Part shown: positions 38,751-48,375 of the stretch, one piece after another
Numbering within the stretch: position 1 is the stretch's first letter
Layout of the letters: every line of letters starts with the position of its first letter
NCBI GenBank assembly: GCA_005223185.1
Contig: NJBN01000001.1
Location: forward strand, 441,365 to 505,364
DNA length: 64,000 nt
Direction: 5' to 3'
From: a candidate division LCP-89 bacterium B3_LCP
GTDB lineage: Bacteria; Electryoneota; B3-LCP
Program-made: the position numbers and the translations under genes
The notes under the pieces: generated by a model
Told to the model about the DNA's origin: nothing
The model's database searches: none
The model's input: the letters and a program-made list of their open reading frames with translations, nothing else

Positions 38751-38915
38751 GTTTCAAATCCCCCTTGGTCCCCCTTTGGAAAAGGGGGAAACTGCGTAAT
38801 TCCCTGCATACCCACTAACACCCCCCTTTCCCAAAGGGGGGAGTCCCAACTTGTTGGGACGGGGGGATTTCGGGACGGGGGGATTTCGGGACGGGGGGAT
38901 TTGGGCGGGGGGATT
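38751..38915. repeat. G/C-tract-rich ~165-bp direct repeat flanking the 3' side of the DUF559 gene
   Basis: ggtttcaaatcccccttggtccccc…ccctgcatacccactaa…cccccctttcccaaaggggggag…, then 3 tandem units of gggacggggggatttc. About 85-90% identical to 39275-39425. Confidence 0.8.
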
Positions 38916-39261
38916 ACAGATGATTCCAAATCACCTGCAGCACCCCCTCAATATTATTCATAACCTCCAGGTTGCTGAATCGCAACACTTGAAATCCTAA
39001 TTCATTCAGATATGAATCTCGTTTACGGTCTTTGATCTTACCCTGAGGGGTAAAATGTTGTTCACCATCTAATTCAATAATTATTTTCGCTTTAGGACAA
39101 TAAAAATCAACAATGTAATTTCCAATTACTCTTTGACGATAAAATTGGGTACGTTTTAGTTGTTTGCGTCGTATTCTGTTCCAGAGCCGTTTCTCTGCTT
39201 CAGTGGCATTATTTCTTAACTCTCTGGCAAGAAGTTTCAATTTGGGATTATAATAGATCAT
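38914..39261 (-). CDS. DUF559-family endonuclease-domain protein (Vsr-like PD-(D/E)xK fold)
   Basis: 115 aa; strong match to the remembered DUF559 pattern (YIVDFYCPKAKIIIELDGEQH…FQVLRFSNLEVMNNIEGVLQVI). Confidence 0.8.
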   Translation of the reverse strand: MIYYNPKLKLLARELRNNATEAEKRLWNRIRRKQLKRTQFYRQRVIGNYIVDFYCPKAKIIIELDGEQHFTPQGKIKDRKRDSYLNELGFQVLRFSNLEVMNNIEGVLQVIWNHL

Positions 39262-39274
39262 GCTTCATTGTTGA

Positions 39275-39425
39275 GGTTTCAAATCCCCCTTGATCCCCCT
39301 TTTCCAAAGGGGGAAACTGCATCTTTCCCTGCATACCCACTAATTCCCCCCTTTCCCAAAGGGGGGAGCCCCGACTTGTCGGGGCGGGGGGATTGGACGG
39401 GGGGATTTTAGACAGGGGGATTAAA
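39275..39425. repeat. G/C-tract-rich ~150-bp direct repeat flanking the 5' side of the DUF559 gene
   Basis: ggtttcaaatcccccttgatccccc…ccctgcatacccactaa…cccccctttcccaaaggggggag…gggcggggggatt…; same orientation as 38751-38915. Confidence 0.8.
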
Positions 39426-39509
39426 ACAGCAACCTAACCCACCCCAGAGGGGTGGGGCACCGGTGCGAGGGCACTCCTTCAGAGCTTCCACCTTCGGCGA
39501 AGGCTTTCG

Positions 39510-40412
39510 TCATTGAGTTGATGTTGGTACATCGGTTCTTTCGAGATCGTCCACATCTGCTTCAATTGTTCTTAACCGGTCATCACGCTGAATTCTCCAC
39601 ATAGCGATGACTAATTCTGAAATCAATATCGTCATGAACATCAATACATAAGCTACCAGACTCCAGTTATCAGATCCGCTCTTACTGGATATACATGCAA
39701 AAACAAATGCAGTAGATGAGAAAAAAAGGATTATTACATGACGCAGCTTATGGGACCGCTTGAGAAAGTAATATTCTAGCTCATCTATGGCACTATTATA
39801 CAGCAGAAGGCGTCGATCGTTTTGGTGTAATAGTAATTCATCATATAGCTGCTGTCTACTCTTCTCTATGGCTGCTAGAATTTCCTTATTAAGATATTGG
39901 TTTGTTAGCAGGCTGACAACGCCATAAATGGAAAAGAATATAGAGTAGAAAAACACATCCCTTGAAGCGAAGAATAGGACACTCAGGAGGACACCCAGCG
40001 AAAGTATCATTGCGGTTTCTCGCAAATCGGATGGCGGCTTGTATCTCCTAGGATCAAGCCACCGCCATAAGATAATTAATTCATGCCTTGTTGCCCACAC
40101 CCATAACCAAACAAGGACTCCTGTTAAGGCAAATAGTGCTACATAACATATAACTAGAATATCCGGCCAGGATTCCTTGATACGGTCGATCTCAGATAGC
40201 AACATTCCTGCTCCGAGCAGAGATGTGATAATACCTATGCCCCAACGCCGCGCAACGATCAGCCCTTCACTCTTTTCCTTAAGATTTGGTTTGTAGTTCA
40301 CGATGGTTCTCAGTTTATATTGATTTATATTCTTTCCTGTCAGGTTTTGATCGCCGAAGGCGGGTGTGACCTGATGGCTTTTATCATGCTGTAACGTCTG
40401 GTCGCGGTTCAA
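39510..40412 (-). CDS. Polytopic membrane protein of unknown function (third gene of the three-gene operon)
   Basis: 300 aa with about 6 hydrophobic helices (e.g. ILVICYVALFALTGVLVWLWVWA, LVAYVLMFMTILISELVIAMW); no recognisable motif. Confidence 0.5.
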   Translation of the reverse strand: MNRDQTLQHDKSHQVTPAFGDQNLTGKNINQYKLRTIVNYKPNLKEKSEGLIVARRWGIGIITSLLGAGMLLSEIDRIKESWPDILVICYVALFALTGVLVWLWVWATRHELIILWRWLDPRRYKPPSDLRETAMILSLGVLLSVLFFASRDVFFYSIFFSIYGVVSLLTNQYLNKEILAAIEKSRQQLYDELLLHQNDRRLLLYNSAIDELEYYFLKRSHKLRHVIILFFSSTAFVFACISSKSGSDNWSLVAYVLMFMTILISELVIAMWRIQRDDRLRTIEADVDDLERTDVPTSTQ

Positions 40413-40462
40413 GCAATACAGAGCCTTGAACTTACGAATAAAAAAATGTAAATATCAGGATT

Positions 40463-41050
40463 TTACTCTTCTGCATTCTTTTTATTGGTACACCGCCCAG
40501 CGTAACATTCCCATCCCCTTTCATTCATCGCTCTTTGGTCACTAATTCTCCTCTCAATAAATTCATTTAAACGACTATGGACATACCAGCTATCTAAATA
40601 GATCTGTGCAAAACAATCTGGATCCTCGGATGGATCACGCCCTTTGTATTTGATACTGCCGGTTTTTTTATGAGCAAATTCATTTCTGAGATTGTTTATG
40701 ACTGGAATATATTCATCTAATTCGGTTGCAACAAATGATTTAAAGCAAGGACGTAGAAGTTTATGCACTTGACTAAATGACATTCGTTTGACAATTCTAT
40801 CTAGTTCCTTTAGGCAACTTTCATGAAGTTCGTCATACCCTTCCATCCATAAAATTAGATCGGAAAGGTGCTCATATAGAATTTCTTTCATCATTGATTC
40901 AATTGATGCGTGAATGTCAAGTACAATAGAACGAACAATGTGATTCATATCTGTTCTATCAGAAGTCCAGGATTTCACTAATGCAAGTACTTCTTCTTTC
41001 GTTGAACAGCCTAATATGTTGATATATTTTCTATGATCGGTCTTAGTCAT
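40463..41050 (-). CDS. Hypothetical protein with a HEPN-like Rx4H motif (second gene of the three-gene operon)
   Basis: 195 aa, helical-looking; motif INNLRNEFAHKK fits the HEPN Rx4-6H signature. Motif-level inference only. Confidence 0.45.
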   Translation of the reverse strand: MTKTDHRKYINILGCSTKEEVLALVKSWTSDRTDMNHIVRSIVLDIHASIESMMKEILYEHLSDLILWMEGYDELHESCLKELDRIVKRMSFSQVHKLLRPCFKSFVATELDEYIPVINNLRNEFAHKKTGSIKYKGRDPSEDPDCFAQIYLDSWYVHSRLNEFIERRISDQRAMNERGWECYAGRCTNKKNAEE

Positions 41051-41149
41051 AGTTTATTAGACTCCCTCCGATACAACATCCATTTCTTCGTCGAGTTTGT
41101 ATGACATAGTTTTAGGTGCTTAACGAACGCTGGTATAAAACGGGTACTT

Positions 41150-41893
41150 TTAAGGACTTGTGGTGCCCGTAGAGGTAACCGTTGTTGTTATACCGTTGGG
41201 ATCGGTCGGATAAGGATAAGTTTGTGGATCATTACCAAGTATTTTTTCAATTTCTTCTTTGAAATGATTTCGTATATTCGCAGTGCTAGAGGGTGGATCA
41301 CAATCCAATATGCTGAACATACTGTGTGACCGTGCGTGTAATGGTTTTCCTGAATGTAGTGTATCTAGTCTTTTGAGAGCTGCATCAATAGAATTCACAG
41401 CTATTAGTTTTGAGTACCAATTGCCTAGTTTAACAGCGTTGTCACTGTTTTCTCTAAAGTAGATTTCTATTGCAGCAGCAATCTCGGATACAAAGTCAGG
41501 CAGATTTAAAAAAACACGATGTCCAGCACCATTTACTTGTTTTCTCAAATGCATAGGTGATTGATCGTGGTGTAAGATAAAACGAAGCTTTACTTGTTGT
41601 GTCGCATTCGACTGTCCATACGTATGAATCAATGAATTTCGTATTCGCCATAGATCATCATCCAGACTACCATACTTTGCATTTAGTTTCTTCATATATT
41701 CAGAAATAAATTTCTTAAAATCATTTCCTGTGTTTCTGTCTTTTGTAGGGTCCAGCCCTAATCCCATATAGTCTATACAGCAAAATGAAAGAATATATGC
41801 GCCCATTAGAGATCTTCCTTCAATTGCCCTTATGATATCAGCCACTGCCGTATCAAAGAAATTAAATTTTAATATGTTATAATCATATGCCAT
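41150..41893 (-). CDS. Hypothetical protein with a HEPN-like Rx4H motif (first gene of the three-gene operon)
   Basis: 247 aa; agggag RBS; motif DLWRIRNSLIHTYG fits Rx4H; C-terminal low-complexity Thr/Pro tail. Motif-level inference only. Confidence 0.45.
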   Translation of the reverse strand: MAYDYNILKFNFFDTAVADIIRAIEGRSLMGAYILSFCCIDYMGLGLDPTKDRNTGNDFKKFISEYMKKLNAKYGSLDDDLWRIRNSLIHTYGQSNATQQVKLRFILHHDQSPMHLRKQVNGAGHRVFLNLPDFVSEIAAAIEIYFRENSDNAVKLGNWYSKLIAVNSIDAALKRLDTLHSGKPLHARSHSMFSILDCDPPSSTANIRNHFKEEIEKILGNDPQTYPYPTDPNGITTTVTSTGTTSP

Positions 41894-44343: not shown

Positions 44344-45447
44344 CTAGTTGGCGCTTACTCGCAATAGAATGTCTTCGCGAGCCTTCTTCAACCTACTAAG
44401 CATCGGGCCAATCTGACCACTCATTTGCCCCACAAAATCATATAAATCTTGCTCGGAGTCCGGTATTTTATAACCTTTTGGACTACTTGCTATAATCACT
44501 CCTTTATCTCTAAGCTTTGCAATTACCTTTGAGCGCAAGTAATGAGTAGTTACTTTATTCGGGCTAACCTGATTTAGAATTCTCTTTAGCTGTTCAGTAA
44601 ATATGTACCTTTTTGAATTTACATATCTAAAGTGGTAAAGTAAATATTTCAACGCTTCTAGCTGATCTGTTATAACTTCATCTTTAGTGTCCATATTTTC
44701 TTCAATAAAATTTGATGCTTTATAAAGTGCTAGCTCACAGATAAGATTATCAAAATCGTTTCCTTTAGTAATCCATGACTTATTTGTAGAAGGGTGACTT
44801 ATTGGTGGCCATGTGTCAATTAGCAAAGTCCGATTTAATAAAATATTCATAAAATCTTTTGAAACGGTTGTGGATTTTTTGGGATCAAAATGTCTTGCGA
44901 GTGTTCCAGATATAAAGTCAGCAAGTTGAACTATTGGTTGTTCATGACTCGCAACAAATCCGAATTCTGCTCGGATGAATAGATCAGGTACATGATTCTC
45001 GTTTACATATTTTTGAAAGCCTTCCATAAAAGATCTTCCCCCGTATTCATCGGATATTATAAACATTTCGGGGAAGGTACGATATAACTTTCTGTAAAGC
45101 AATCCATGCGTAAACTTAATAAATGGCTCTCTGTAAATTAATCCACTGCTTTCCCATACCTCACGTTTATCAATTATAATAGAATAAAATTTAAAATCTA
45201 ATCCAGCAATATCCTTTAATATCTTTCTCCTTCTTTCATCATTTGAACCAACATTCTTGGACTTCATCTCCCCAGTGCGAAAATGGATTTTTCGTATTTC
45301 ATCTGCATCCCGTTCCAATTCTACTAAATGATCGTGTTCTACTATAATAGCAGTAATAATAAAGCATGTTGACACTCCTCCTTTTGAAACATCCAAGTTA
45401 GGGTCTCCATACGCGTCAACGAATGCATACTGAGGTTCTAAGTTCAT
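44344..45447 (-). CDS. DUF3800-like protein with C-terminal extension
   Basis: 367 aa; N-terminal YAFVDAYGDP and later SHEQPIVQLADFISGTLARHF resemble remembered DUF3800 signatures (DESG-like start, Q.AD..AG…R). Family call from memory only. Confidence 0.5.
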   Translation of the reverse strand: MNLEPQYAFVDAYGDPNLDVSKGGVSTCFIITAIIVEHDHLVELERDADEIRKIHFRTGEMKSKNVGSNDERRRKILKDIAGLDFKFYSIIIDKREVWESSGLIYREPFIKFTHGLLYRKLYRTFPEMFIISDEYGGRSFMEGFQKYVNENHVPDLFIRAEFGFVASHEQPIVQLADFISGTLARHFDPKKSTTVSKDFMNILLNRTLLIDTWPPISHPSTNKSWITKGNDFDNLICELALYKASNFIEENMDTKDEVITDQLEALKYLLYHFRYVNSKRYIFTEQLKRILNQVSPNKVTTHYLRSKVIAKLRDKGVIIASSPKGYKIPDSEQDLYDFVGQMSGQIGPMLSRLKKAREDILLRVSAN

Positions 45448-45515: not shown

Positions 45516-45568
45516 TTTAAAATATAAGCAAAAACCCCTGCAATTTCAAGGGGTTTTGGGGGTAAAGC
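45516..45568. repeat. ~50-bp direct repeat, copy 2
   Basis: ttttaaaatataagcaaaaacccctgcaatttcaaggggttttgggggtaaag; same orientation as 44074-44125. Confidence 0.75.
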
Positions 45569-45645
45569 GTGTTTATAAAGATTATTATACAATCGATCTT
45601 TAGCATTTCATGTTCCCAAAAAGGGAAAATAGTTCTTGACTTCTA

Positions 45646-45674
45646 TTTGGGAACTTCTTATCTTATATATAGTA
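45646..45674 (+). promoter_or_regulatory. Sigma-70-like promoter TTGACT-N17-TATCTT upstream of higB
   Basis: ttgact 45646-45651, 17-nt spacer, tatctt 45669-45674, about 40 nt upstream of ATG 45714. Confidence 0.4.
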
Positions 45675-45713
45675 TATAAGGTAGAATATTTATGAATCCA
45701 GCTATAGCGCACA

Positions 45714-45998
45714 ATGGAAATAATTAATCTACAAGCGTTAGAAAGATATATCAAGAAGCACAGGACTGCGGAAGAAGTAATAAAGAACTGGGTGGTGTTT
45801 GTCGAAAATGCAGATTGGGATCGTCCTTACGATGTCAAACAGGATTACGATGCAAGATTTATTAGTTCTAAGCGTGTGATCTTCAAATTAGGTAACTCTT
45901 GGCGTATTGATACACGAATTGCTTATAACAGTAGAAAGATTTACGTTATCCGTATTGGAACTCACGAAGAGTACAATAAATGGAAATATAAAGATTAA
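45714..45998 (+). CDS. higB: Type II toxin HigB (E. coli YgjN-like RelE-fold mRNA interferase)
   Basis: 94 aa; C-terminal KRVIFKLGNSWRIDTRIAYNSRKIYVIRIGTHEEYNK aligns with E. coli HigB (HYVFNVGGNELRVVAMVFFESQKCYIREVMTHKEYD). Confidence 0.8.
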   Translation: MEIINLQALERYIKKHRTAEEVIKNWVVFVENADWDRPYDVKQDYDARFISSKRVIFKLGNSWRIDTRIAYNSRKIYVIRIGTHEEYNKWKYKD

Positions 45999-46012
45999 CT
46001 AGAGAGTCAGAT

Positions 46013-47542
46013 ATGAGCCTAAAAGTTATAAAGACTCAAAATGATTACGATGAGGCTCTTCGGGAAATTGAAGAGTTCATCATACTCGATCCCGTTCCTG
46101 GGACAGAAGAAGCCAATCGCCTGGAAGTCCTGTCGGTGCTGATAAAGGCGTATGAGGATGAGCATTTCCATTTTGACCTCCCCGATCCGATTTCAGCAAT
46201 CAAATTTGTTATGGAGCAACGTGGCCTTAAGCGGTCTGATTTGGTGCCCTTTATTGGTTCCCCTTCAAAAGTGTCAGAAATACTATCTGGGAAAAGGCAA
46301 CTCAGTCTCTCAATGATGAGACGACTCAATGAAGGATTGAATATACCCGCAGAAGTTTTGATGAAAGAACGTCAAAAGGAAATACCTGAAGAAACTGATA
46401 TTCAGTGGAGTAAGTTTCCGTTAACCGAGCTGAGTAAAAGAAACTGGTTCCCCGAGTTCTCTGGGACGCTACCTAAACTTAAGGAATACGCTGAGGATTT
46501 AATGCGACCGAAAATAGAGTTACTTTTAAAAAATTGTACGATGATTCCTCTTCAAAGGACTTCAAGTATAAATCTGCGAAGTGACAAAGTGATAGATCTT
46601 TATTCGTTAGTTGCATGGCAAACCAGAGTTGTTGAAAAAGCTAAAGGAATCAGCCTTGAAGTGCCTTATTCTGGGAAAATTGCCAAAGCACTTCTCAAGC
46701 AAATTGCAAGTCTGACAGTTCTGGATGAAGGACCTCTAGCAGCACGAGAGATATTATATAAAAACGGTATTCATCTTGTTGTTGAACCGCATCTAAAGAG
46801 TACATACTTAGATGGTGCAGTAATGCTTCTCAATGATGGCACACCAATAATCGCTTTGACACTTAGATACAACCGACTTGATAATTTCTGGTTTAGCCTT
46901 ATTCATGAATTAGTACACTTGCATAAACATCTAGATGAGGAAAACTCATACTTTTTTGATGATTTTGAAGGAACAGAGAATCTACTAGAAATTGAGGTTG
47001 AAGCAGACAAACATGCGGGTGAGATTTTAATACCAAAGAGTAGTTGGAGTATAGAAAGATCCATTTATTATTCTACAAGAGGAACTTTTGATGAGATTAA
47101 ACAATTGGCCAGAAAACTAAATGTACATCCCGCAGTCTTAGTAGGCCGAATTCATCATGATTCTGGGGATTTTAGGAGATATCATAGGCTTCTGGGGAAA
47201 GGTATCCCCCAAGAGCTATTTTCAGATTCGTCTGTTAACTATTTGATTAGACAGCCAAATATAATAAATAACAGAAAGGGTACAAAAATGGGAAGAATGC
47301 GTAAAACAATTCGTTATAAGCTTTACGATGGTAGAAAAGACGTTTACCATGGTATCACAAAAAACCTTGAGCGAAGAGAACAAGAACACGAACGGGATGG
47401 CAAAAAGTTTTCACGGGTAGAGAGGGTGGGACCTGCCGTAACAGTTGAAACTGCAAAACAATGGGAAGAACAATCTCTGAAGAGTTACCGGAAGAATCAC
47501 GGGGGTAAGAATCCAAAGTATAATGAGGATAAAACTGGATAA
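46013..47542 (+). CDS. Fusion protein: HigA-like HTH antitoxin + ImmA/IrrE (DUF955, COG2856) HEXXH metallopeptidase + C-terminal GIY-YIG-like module
   Basis: Residues 1-120 match HigA (IGSPSKVSEILSGKRQLSLSMMRRLNEGLNIPAEVL vs E. coli IGSKSMVSRVLSGKRKLTLEHAKKLATRFGISPALF). Central region carries LIHELVHLHKH and EADKHAGEILIP, typical of ImmA/IrrE Zn-peptidases. C-terminal ~90 aa carries IRYKLYDGRKDVYHGITKNLERREQEH, resembling the GIY…YIG…R…E/H core. One uninterrupted 509-codon ORF starting 15 nt after higB. Confidence 0.7.
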   Translation: MSLKVIKTQNDYDEALREIEEFIILDPVPGTEEANRLEVLSVLIKAYEDEHFHFDLPDPISAIKFVMEQRGLKRSDLVPFIGSPSKVSEILSGKRQLSLSMMRRLNEGLNIPAEVLMKERQKEIPEETDIQWSKFPLTELSKRNWFPEFSGTLPKLKEYAEDLMRPKIELLLKNCTMIPLQRTSSINLRSDKVIDLYSLVAWQTRVVEKAKGISLEVPYSGKIAKALLKQIASLTVLDEGPLAAREILYKNGIHLVVEPHLKSTYLDGAVMLLNDGTPIIALTLRYNRLDNFWFSLIHELVHLHKHLDEENSYFFDDFEGTENLLEIEVEADKHAGEILIPKSSWSIERSIYYSTRGTFDEIKQLARKLNVHPAVLVGRIHHDSGDFRRYHRLLGKGIPQELFSDSSVNYLIRQPNIINNRKGTKMGRMRKTIRYKLYDGRKDVYHGITKNLERREQEHERDGKKFSRVERVGPAVTVETAKQWEEQSLKSYRKNHGGKNPKYNEDKTG

Positions 47543-47601
47543 CAGGTGTTAAATGCAGATTGTCCCCCATATTTTCAGCTGTAGATTAGACTGAGTTCCC
47601 C

Positions 47602-48375
47602 TCACACCTCAAACATCTCCGTGGCGCAGTGCTGCTGGGCGACGATGACGTCTATGTGGTTGTGTCCTGCCTTTTTCAGGTGGGATTTTACGCTTTTTAG
47701 GGCCACTTTGGCGTCGTTGTTCTGCTGGCTCAGGTGAGCTAAGACCACCCTCTTCAGGCGGGGTGAGGCGATCTGTGCCAGCGCTTCACCAGCCTGTTCG
47801 TTGGAAAGATGCCCGTGCTGGCCCTTTATGCGCTGTTTCAGATCCCAGGGATAGGGTCCGTCTAAAAGCATGGAGACGTCGTGGTTGGCTTCCAGCACGA
47901 TGGCATCACAATCACGCATCCAGTTCAAAGTAGCCAGATCGACGATACCCAGGTCGGTGGCGATAACCAGCCTTTTATCTCCTTCCACAATCAGAAAACC
48001 CATCGTTTCAGAAGCGTCGTGGTTGACTGAAAATGATTCCACCTGAAGATTACCAAATTCGAGTGTTTCGCTGTTTAAGCTGAAGAACCGGGTGAAATTA
48101 TTGATATGCCGCTTGACAGTGGCGATTGTACCTTCACTGGCGTAAATGGGCAGATCCTGGCGGCGGGCGATAACGGCAGCTCCGCGCAAGTGATCGGAAT
48201 GTTCATGACTGATCAACATCGCCTGGATGCAGTTGTAATCGCGGTCGAATTCCTTAAGACGTTCACCAATCCTGCGCATGGAAAGACCAACGTCAATTAA
48301 GACGCCGGCGCCGTTATCATCTTCGACAAAGGCGCAATTCCCTTCCGAACCGGATGCCAGTATGCTAAATTTCAT
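47602..48375 (-). CDS. MBL-fold metallo-hydrolase
   Basis: 257 aa with HxHxDH motif (LISHEHSDHLRG) and later His/Asp ligands. Confidence 0.75.
   Translation of the reverse strand: MKFSILASGSEGNCAFVEDDNGAGVLIDVGLSMRRIGERLKEFDRDYNCIQAMLISHEHSDHLRGAAVIARRQDLPIYASEGTIATVKRHINNFTRFFSLNSETLEFGNLQVESFSVNHDASETMGFLIVEGDKRLVIATDLGIVDLATLNWMRDCDAIVLEANHDVSMLLDGPYPWDLKQRIKGQHGHLSNEQAGEALAQIASPRLKRVVLAHLSQQNNDAKVALKSVKSHLKKAGHNHIDVIVAQQHCATEMFEV

Follow-up and report, generated by a model that had tools for sequence, protein, structure and literature searches.

What kind of system is encoded when a gene for a HigB-like protein is followed by a single long reading frame that joins a HigA-like helix-turn-helix (HTH) region, an ImmA/IrrE-type peptidase and a GIY-YIG-like stretch? 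This question is raised by a locus in a 64,000-nucleotide stretch of DNA (contig NJBN01000001.1, positions 441,365 to 505,364 of the forward strand, referred to here as the window) from the candidate division LCP-89 bacterium B3_LCP. The higB-like open reading frame (ORF) and its 509-codon partner are separated by a gap of 14 nt (Table 1). As judged from their sequences, the HigB-like protein (component A) and the HTH-peptidase part of its partner (component B) are the core of PD-lambda-2, an anti-phage pair that has already been described, and not a new system. With a probability of about 0.6, the locus represents a PD-lambda-2-type A-B module at an ancestral chromosomal site, 3' of which a free-standing GIY-YIG gene was inserted, with accidental read-through from B into the inserted gene.

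The HigB-like protein and its HTH-peptidase partner

The identification of the 94-aa protein as HigB in the initial annotation was confirmed by its match to the Pfam family HigB_toxin (PF09907, E 6e-15); the protein also matches the PADLOC profile PD-Lambda-2_A over its full length (residues 1-91 of 94, E 1e-21). The PADLOC profile PD-Lambda-2_B aligns with residues 1-405 of the 509-aa protein over profile positions 1-398 of 402 (E 9.5e-136). This B part is laid out as a HigA-like helical N-terminus with HTH (approximately residues 1-120), a helical middle and an M78 peptidase. The proposed HigA-like nature of the N-terminus was borne out by the alignment of residues 6-110 with HigA of E. coli/Shigella (5ifg, 5ycl; E ~1e-6) and by a match to HTH_3 at residues 63-115 (22.9 bits, as compared to a cutoff of 23). 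Peptidase_M78 (PF06114) is found above its cutoff at residues 276-380 (23.4 bits versus 22), in agreement with the ImmA/IrrE-type HEXXH peptidase that had been postulated from the sequence. The motif HELVH comprises residues 298-302 (nt 46904-46918), and H298, E299, H302 and E328 are invariant across 43 B homologues, so that B shows the HExxH motif with a downstream glutamate ligand together with the profile and the fold of an M78 metallopeptidase. In the AlphaFold2 (AF2) model, based on an alignment of these 43 homologues, the predicted local distance difference test (pLDDT) is mostly >90 over residues 1-405, and the best Foldseek matches of the B model in the PDB are E. coli HigA (probability 1.0) and the peptidase CapP (7t5t, probability 1.0). 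B also matches the PADLOC profile for capP (E 7e-8). The alignment underlying the full-length model lacks coverage of residues 406-509, and the model is uninformative on docking of the tail onto B.

PD-lambda-2 came to light when Vassallo et al. (2022) selected functionally for phage-defence genes in E. coli (PMC9519451). It comprises the HigB-like protein A, protein B, which combines a HigA-like Xre region with a peptidase, and protein C, which is related to a protein of P4; B alone was, unexpectedly, toxic, A rescued the cells, and C was needed for defence (PMC9519451). The two core proteins, their order and the size of B (~400 aa) are the same in the window, which differs from the E. coli system in having a mini GIY-YIG module in frame with B where E. 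coli has the Beta protein (PF14350), and in being known from sequence alone. Makarova et al. proposed in 2009 that Xre-COG2856 fusions whose operons also contain a RelE or PIN gene form three-component toxin-antitoxin (TA) systems (PMC2701414). Their architecture class is exactly that of the B part, but a nuclease module on or beside the fusion is unmentioned in that work. Assignment of the locus to this class, as made in the initial annotation, holds, except that the class is not merely predicted, since PD-lambda-2 has been validated.

The locus had further been pictured as a higB toxin gene paired with a self-cleaving antitoxin. This polarity is wrong for the closest characterized relative, as it is B that is toxic in PD-lambda-2, and A that neutralizes it (PMC9519451). 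Likeness to HigB-HigA of E. coli K-12 (YgjN-YgjM) extends to the family of A (PF09907), to the toxin-like gene coming first, and to residues 1-110/120 of B, which are HigA-like in sequence and fold, whereas B with its peptidase comprises at least 405 aa as compared to the 138 aa of HigA. A classification of the pair as type II HigBA was rejected on the same grounds, the likeness to HigA in the sequence alignment being confined to residues 6-110 of a partner of at least 405 aa that carries a peptidase. ImmR-ImmA of ICEBs1, DdrO-IrrE of Deinococcus and CapH-CapP of the cyclic-oligonucleotide-based anti-phage signalling system (CBASS) share with the window an HExxH M78 protein of the same fold, an Xre HTH and a probable operator located at the promoter. 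Unlike in these systems, HTH and peptidase reside on one polypeptide in the window, and this polypeptide is paired with a HigB-like protein.

The pair is widespread. Among 8000 candidates scored, 1746 homologues of B passed the threshold of E 1e-3, and 177 plasmid records contained a match. Relatives of B are encoded in no fewer than 596 genome stretches, of which 80 were analysed. A HigB-like ORF immediately precedes the B gene in 74 of these 80 loci, and among the six exceptions, three are truncated by contig ends. In a scan of 79 viral loci for B homologues and fusions, a B homologue was present at 18 viral-contig loci, and HigB precedes it at 10 of these 18. The Beta protein of P4 (PF14350) was not found anywhere in the window by a six-frame profile search at E ≤1, and neither neighbour matches the PADLOC profile PD-Lambda-2_C. 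Among the 80 genome loci, only 5-6 have the Beta protein directly downstream of A-B.

The GIY-YIG tail and the genes behind A-B

Residues 426-509 of the window protein constitute, according to sequence profiles and structure prediction, a complete GIY-YIG fold and a putative nuclease; the assignment is weak for the single sequence and solid at the level of the family. PF01541 gave an E-value of 0.064 on the 509-aa protein and 0.0099 on the 84-aa module alone (16.6 bits, which is below the cutoff of 22.6), whereas 58 of 63 family members were matched at E ≤0.1, the best of them with E 1.5e-8. A family profile searched against the PDB retrieved the UPF0213 GIY-YIG structures 1ywl (E 8e-4) and 1zg2 (E 1e-3) with significance, and I-TevI, T4 EndoII and SLX1 weakly (E 0.15-1.6). 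The AF2 model of the module (pLDDT 89) has the topology beta-beta-alpha-beta-alpha, and the top seven Foldseek matches in the PDB are all to the GIY-YIG domain of UvrC (probability 0.96-1.0, TM-score 0.55-0.63). In the alignment of the 63 sequences, Tyr10, Tyr20, Gly22, Arg30, His34, Glu60 and Asn79 are invariant or conserved to ≥90%; their equivalents in the 509-aa protein, Y435, Y445, G447, R455, H459, E485 and N504, are all intact. The fold and the Tyr/Tyr-x-Gly/Arg/His/Glu/Asn set are thus shared with UPF0213/YhbQ (1ywl, 1zg2) and the N-terminal GIY-YIG domain of UvrC, from which the module differs in belonging to a separate family (n = 623) with a C-terminal YRKNHGGKNPKYN tail of its own. 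The GIY-YIG-like C-terminal stretch of the initial annotation was therefore substantiated, as were the domain assignments of the two preceding regions.

With the tail as query, free-standing homologues of 81-85 aa were retrieved. Identity amounts to 54-64% across the entire alignment, and the Met1 of these proteins corresponds to M426 of the window protein (nt 47288). A search of 1.8 billion representatives with the tail profile delineated the family of 623 representatives referred to here as mini GIY-YIG; nearly all of the 150 representatives listed have a length of 54-160 aa, and in none of these 150 does the module form the C-terminal part of a ~500-aa protein. A tblastn search with the tail did not produce a match in phage or plasmid records.

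Small GIY-YIG genes also occur behind B in other lineages. Three loci (L086, L117 and L118), whose B proteins show 54-55% identity to that of the window, contain a free-standing gene for a 65-70-aa GIY-YIG protein 3-29 nt past the stop codon of B (hmmsearch E ~1e-21). This 65-aa type (GIY65) has a histidine in place of the second tyrosine and is devoid of the C-terminal Asn region; it comprises 243 clusters, and the 120 members listed have 63-98 aa and are 71-94% identical. A third type, a canonical GIY-YIG gene coding for 96 aa (PF01541 E 6e-14), is located 88 nt past B in L066, which belongs to the set of 80 genome loci. According to a neighbour-joining tree of B, the proteins linked to GIY65 constitute a separate clade, and the window protein groups with its GIY-less syntenic relatives; the B proteins of L086, L117, L118 and L066 are of lineages other than that of the window protein. 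Since the GIY65-linked B proteins and the window B fall in separate tree groups, the three small GIY-YIG types appear to have come behind B independently. Given this recurrence immediately downstream, a functional link between small GIY-YIG proteins and the B-type peptidase is plausible.

Other genes found directly behind A-B code for HsdR-like proteins of ~1000 aa (about 5 of the 80 loci) and Mrr-type nucleases (2 of 80); the remaining loci have many singletons or nothing in this position. The HsdR-like type I restriction subunit was observed behind the pair in L029, L047, L074 and L078, and further downstream in L049 and L059; the Mrr-type nuclease (PADLOC PDC-S02) was observed in L009 and L017.

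Free-standing relatives of the mini GIY-YIG module were also seen at the head of, or within, a number of defence operons, namely in L096 (1196-3080), L099 (3944-4850), L090 (89-1635), L097 (2098-4444), L101 (2856-7179), L094 (3250-4255), L088 (3502-5279), L104 (2676-4611), L001 (4059-7867) and L089. Gene orders include GIY-Cap15-CD-NTase (CBASS), GIY-HsdS, two GIY genes in tandem followed by HsdM, DUF4145-GIY-Eco57I/MmeI-like enzyme, EVE-GIY-NYN, WYL/WCX regulator-GIY, and GIY-Cas3 (type I-E) with a divergent WHD_DUF6293 gene. The mini GIY-YIG genes are tightly packed and co-oriented with the adjoining defence genes and sometimes overlap them. No publication on mini GIY-YIG genes in defence operons was found.

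Origin of the continuous reading frame

The fusion of B to a GIY-YIG module is a singleton in the material searched. Searches were performed with the full-length query, the tail alone and the tail profile, and extended to genome, metagenome and viral loci and to the 65-aa subfamily; the metagenome scan for mini GIY-YIG genes was made with a 4-sequence alignment. No second fusion was present among 119 listed B homologues, 80 genome loci, 18 viral loci and 11 loci of close relatives, nor among the 150 listed mini GIY-YIG representatives, 28 metagenome loci with mini GIY-YIG genes and 120 listed GIY65 proteins. The other 119 B homologues listed have 319-422 aa, cover ~79% of the query and end at about residue 405. 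The idea that the tripartite protein represents an architecture recurring beside higB was thus not sustained, the arrangement having been seen just once across the searches with B, mini GIY-YIG and GIY65. Both TKJ42466.1 and TKJ42467.1 occur only once in public data, on a single 636-kb contig of the metagenome-assembled genome (MAG) B3_LCP.

Three relatives of B (L083, L115 and L116; 61-62% identity) occupy the same chromosomal site. In all of them, the 3' end of an MBL-fold gene is found just downstream of B; in L083, genes for OPRT, OMP-decarboxylase and Fur follow, and in L115 the start of a P5C-dehydrogenase gene lies upstream of higB. These loci consist of A and a B of 409-410 aa, followed by a terminator hairpin, and are devoid of a GIY-YIG gene. 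As A and B of L083 (62-65%) have diverged from those of the window about like the flanking housekeeping genes (69-79%), the A-B pair is probably native to the site, and the tail an addition.

Between residue 405 and M426 lies a spacer of 20 codons, SSVNYLIRQPNIINNRKGTK, for which no homologue was detected, and which resembles sequence that once lay in the 3' flank or between genes and is now in frame. Out-of-frame stop codons (TAA 47236 in frame +2, TGA 47244 in frame +1, TAG 47248 in frame +2) are present at the position where the orthologues stop, and pLDDT is <50 over residues 407-443, with an alignment that lacks coverage past residue 405. An imperfect direct repeat flanks the GIY-YIG segment, with one copy at the 3' end of the B part and the other after the GIY-YIG stop codon (Table 1); its local-alignment score was reached by 10 of 5000 shuffles. 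Joining of the two TATTTTCAG copies would yield a B protein of 407 aa that ends with ELFSAVD*, comparable to the ends LFGVDKSS*, LFVVDISN*, LFGLD* and LFGV* of the B proteins of relatives. When the spacer was shuffled, its reading frame remained open in ~14% of trials, and the chance of the correct frame is one in three, so that accidental read-through would be unremarkable. Loss of the stop codon by a single-base deletion was considered and is not decisively supported, since ungapped and 1-nt-shifted alignments with the orthologues score alike. As the higB-like gene itself lacks a Shine-Dalgarno sequence, such sequences are uninformative with respect to the internal start M426, and this argument was not used.

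A scheme for the locus may be drawn as follows. A and B would be expressed from one promoter with an inverted-repeat operator, as a module inherited at this site in LCP-89-like bacteria. A small GIY-YIG gene would have been inserted at the 3' end of B in such a way that no in-frame stop codon was left and B reads through the 20-codon spacer, which places the GIY-YIG module in the slot of the variable third gene that is occupied elsewhere by the P4 Beta protein, Mrr-type or HsdR-type proteins or other GIY-YIG proteins. By analogy with PD-lambda-2, ImmA/ImmR, IrrE/DdrO and CapP/CapH, B might repress the operon via its HTH, and A and B might hold each other inactive, keeping the toxicity of B and its peptidase in check. 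Infection or DNA damage would then switch on the peptidase, and the cell would be poisoned, resulting in abortive infection. The putative GIY-YIG nuclease would probably be an alternative third component, an accessory protein or effector with the role that PD-lambda-2C has elsewhere. The covalent fusion would be an accident of insertion, and translation of the module may in addition still start at its own ATG (47288).

Continuity of the ORF over 509 codons, as claimed initially, is correct for the assembly. It is quite unlikely that this continuity is an assembly or sequencing error, and that the true genome contains a B gene for ~407-410 aa and a separate gene for the 84-aa GIY-YIG protein. 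That the protein is known once, from one MAG contig, would fit such an error, as would the stop codons of the other frames, which are located exactly at the orthologues' stop, and a run of four T at 47219-47222; because these out-of-frame stops sit at the orthologous position, a one-base change would restore a B of normal length. However, the ungapped alignment with the orthologues is of similar quality to the one shifted by 1 nt, the region is not of sufficiently low complexity to expect Illumina indels, and the flanking repeat provides a biological route to the same result. If the error were real, TKJ42467.1, which is named 'plasmid stabilization protein' in the database, would be mis-modelled at its 509 aa. 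A selected three-domain protein, i.e., a repressor or antitoxin with self-processing peptidase whose tethered nuclease is set free or becomes active upon activation of the peptidase, as suggested in the initial annotation, seems about equally improbable. Gene fusion between neighbours is classically a sign that the products interact physically, M78 peptidases cleave partners such as ImmR, DdrO and CapH, and both the uninterrupted ORF with its intact set of GIY-YIG residues and the small GIY-YIG genes adjoining B in other lineages would be in line with this interpretation. Against it stand the singleton status of the fusion across all searches, the retention of the ATG of the free-standing gene, the spacer without homologue, and the tail-less syntenic relatives.

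The mini GIY-YIG gene could also be a selfish or hitch-hiking element that settles in intergenic spots of defence islands, its presence and fusion being incidental and without functional tie to A-B. GIY-YIG is a classic homing-endonuclease fold, the gene is absent from the syntenic orthologues, a direct repeat flanks the GIY-YIG segment, and relatives reside beside unrelated genes of CBASS, type I and II restriction-modification (R-M), CRISPR type I-E and EVE/NYN systems. We nevertheless regard this explanation as unlikely, because the 84-aa protein lacks a DNA-recognition domain, unlike known homing enzymes, because three small GIY-YIG types were gained beside B in different B lineages, because of the close packing with defence genes described above, and because the tblastn search did not reveal copies in phage or plasmid records.

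Several observations also weigh against our preferred reading of an inserted GIY-YIG gene entered by read-through from a native PD-lambda-2-type pair. By the published definition, the window locus is an incomplete PD-lambda-2, because the Beta protein is absent. The window-type mini GIY-YIG was next to A-B in 0 of the 28 metagenome loci, and since relatives of it occur in many other contexts, its link with A-B could reflect a preference for insertion sites. The evidence from the repeat is modest, with p ~0.002 for one segment, and the terminator hairpin of the orthologues is missing in the window. An ORF that is continuous as assembled, with intact GIY-YIG residues, would be expected of a selected fusion too, and all mechanistic steps of the scheme are drawn by analogy.

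A bolder proposal, which we consider doubtful, is that mini GIY-YIG proteins of 65-110 aa are an undescribed accessory or effector component common to PD-lambda-2-like pairs, CBASS with Cap15, type I and IIG/L R-M and type I-E CRISPR systems, working with their transcriptional or peptidase switches. The B::GIY protein would then be a 'Rosetta-stone' fusion, indicating physical contact of the nuclease with the M78 peptidase-repressor.

Upstream region, neighbouring genes and implications

The features of the locus are compiled in Table 1. Position 45646, at which the segment flagged in the initial annotation starts, falls in the promoter region and outside any ORF. A sigma-70-like promoter precedes the higB-like gene; promoter-like sites are no more numerous in the region than expected by chance, and position and conservation are the sole support for this site. 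Other results of the promoter and terminator scans were dropped, being at chance level overall. On either side of the -35 box lie the arms of the inverted repeat GTTCCCAAAAAG / CTATTTGGGAAC, which have 12 nt, are 92% complementary and 19 nt apart, and are kept in L083 and L115; the HTH of B may bind to this candidate operator. Further upstream, the hairpin AAAACCCCT / AGGGGTTTT is terminator-like on the minus strand. The same hairpin is found upstream of higB in L083 (~15-45) and L115 (~495-520), and this conserved element may insulate the operon from the adjoining gene.

Table 1 Features of the A-B locus in the window and of related GIY-YIG genes at other loci
Feature	Position	Strand	Remarks
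DUF3800 gene	44344..45447	-	divergent; 367 aa; PF12686 E 8e-11; same low-GC stretch
G+C-rich hairpin AAAACCCCT / AGGGGTTTT	45531..45557	.	inverted repeat; between DUF3800 gene and promoter
Candidate operator, inverted repeat GTTCCCAAAAAG / CTATTTGGGAAC	45612..45654	+	brackets -35 box
Sigma-70-like promoter TTGACT-17-TATCTT	45636..45664	+	9/12 consensus matches; kept in syntenic loci
higB-like ORF	45714..45998	+	94 aa / 94 codons; NCBI TKJ42466.1
Partner ORF	46013..47542	+	509 codons, uninterrupted in assembly; TKJ42467.1
PD-lambda-2 component B part, residues 1-405	46013..47227	+	PADLOC, Pfam, PDB, AF2
Imperfect direct repeat, upstream copy	47205..47252	+	TCCCCCA..TATTTTCAG..GATTAGAC; 3' end of B part
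20-codon spacer SSVNYLIRQPNIINNRKGTK	47228..47287	+	without homologue; between residue 405 and M426
Mini GIY-YIG module (putative nuclease), residues 426-509	47288..47542	+	ATG start; 84 aa; homologues, Pfam, PDB profile, fold
Imperfect direct repeat, downstream copy	47562..47591	+	after GIY-YIG stop
MBL-fold gene	47602-48375	-	converging on operon; syntenic counterpart L083 1793-2566
65-aa-type GIY-YIG genes	L117 1896-2093; L118 1584-1781; L086 4862-5074		after PD-lambda-2B homologue

The G+C content is 33-44% across 44.0-47.5 kb, as compared to ~52% in the flanks, which contain genes for P5C-dehydrogenase, an MBL-fold protein, OPRT, OMP-decarboxylase and Fur. The DUF3800 gene, which had been placed in the same island, is a real neighbour and lies in the same low-GC stretch, but it is not a recurrent partner: a sequence search revealed a DUF3800 homologue near B in 0 of 80 genome loci, and near mini GIY-YIG genes in 0 of 28 loci. 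The DUF3800 protein was therefore rejected as a component of the system. Among the called genes of 11 close-relative loci, the DUF3800 Pfam family is likewise missing; comparison with L115 is blurred by a scaffold gap. The protein gives a weak PADLOC candidate match to PDC-M04A (E 5e-7), possibly has a winged-helix region at its C-terminus, and its exact sequence has no entry in the protein collection searched.

The MBL-fold protein of the window matches generic Lactamase_B families only in a Pfam scan; its counterpart in L083 shows a weak precomputed match to the Anti-Pycsar_Apyc1 family. Beyond the P5C-dehydrogenase gene, a second low-GC islet (38914-41893, minus strand, 34-39% GC) codes for a DUF559 endonuclease-like protein (E 5e-38), a multi-pass membrane protein of 300 aa, a 195-aa protein with a weak HEPN_RiboL-PSP match and a 247-aa protein without match, and may be another defence or mobile cluster.

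For PD-lambda-2, the comparison of loci indicates that the third position behind A-B is interchangeable, being occupied by the Beta protein, Mrr, HsdR-like proteins or small GIY-YIG proteins, and that a tiny putative GIY-YIG nuclease fills it in at least three lineages. This interchangeability suggests that the A-B pair is a front-end, i.e., a sensor or switch, which drives different DNA-directed effectors. The natural B::GIY fusion, if real, would be a ready construct for having switch and effector as one complex. What is new in the window is modest in extent, comprising a PD-lambda-2 variant with a mini GIY-YIG module in the third position, and a lead to a defence-associated family: the 623 representatives of mini GIY-YIG, members of which head CBASS, R-M and CRISPR operons, may point to a new component associated with bacterial defence.

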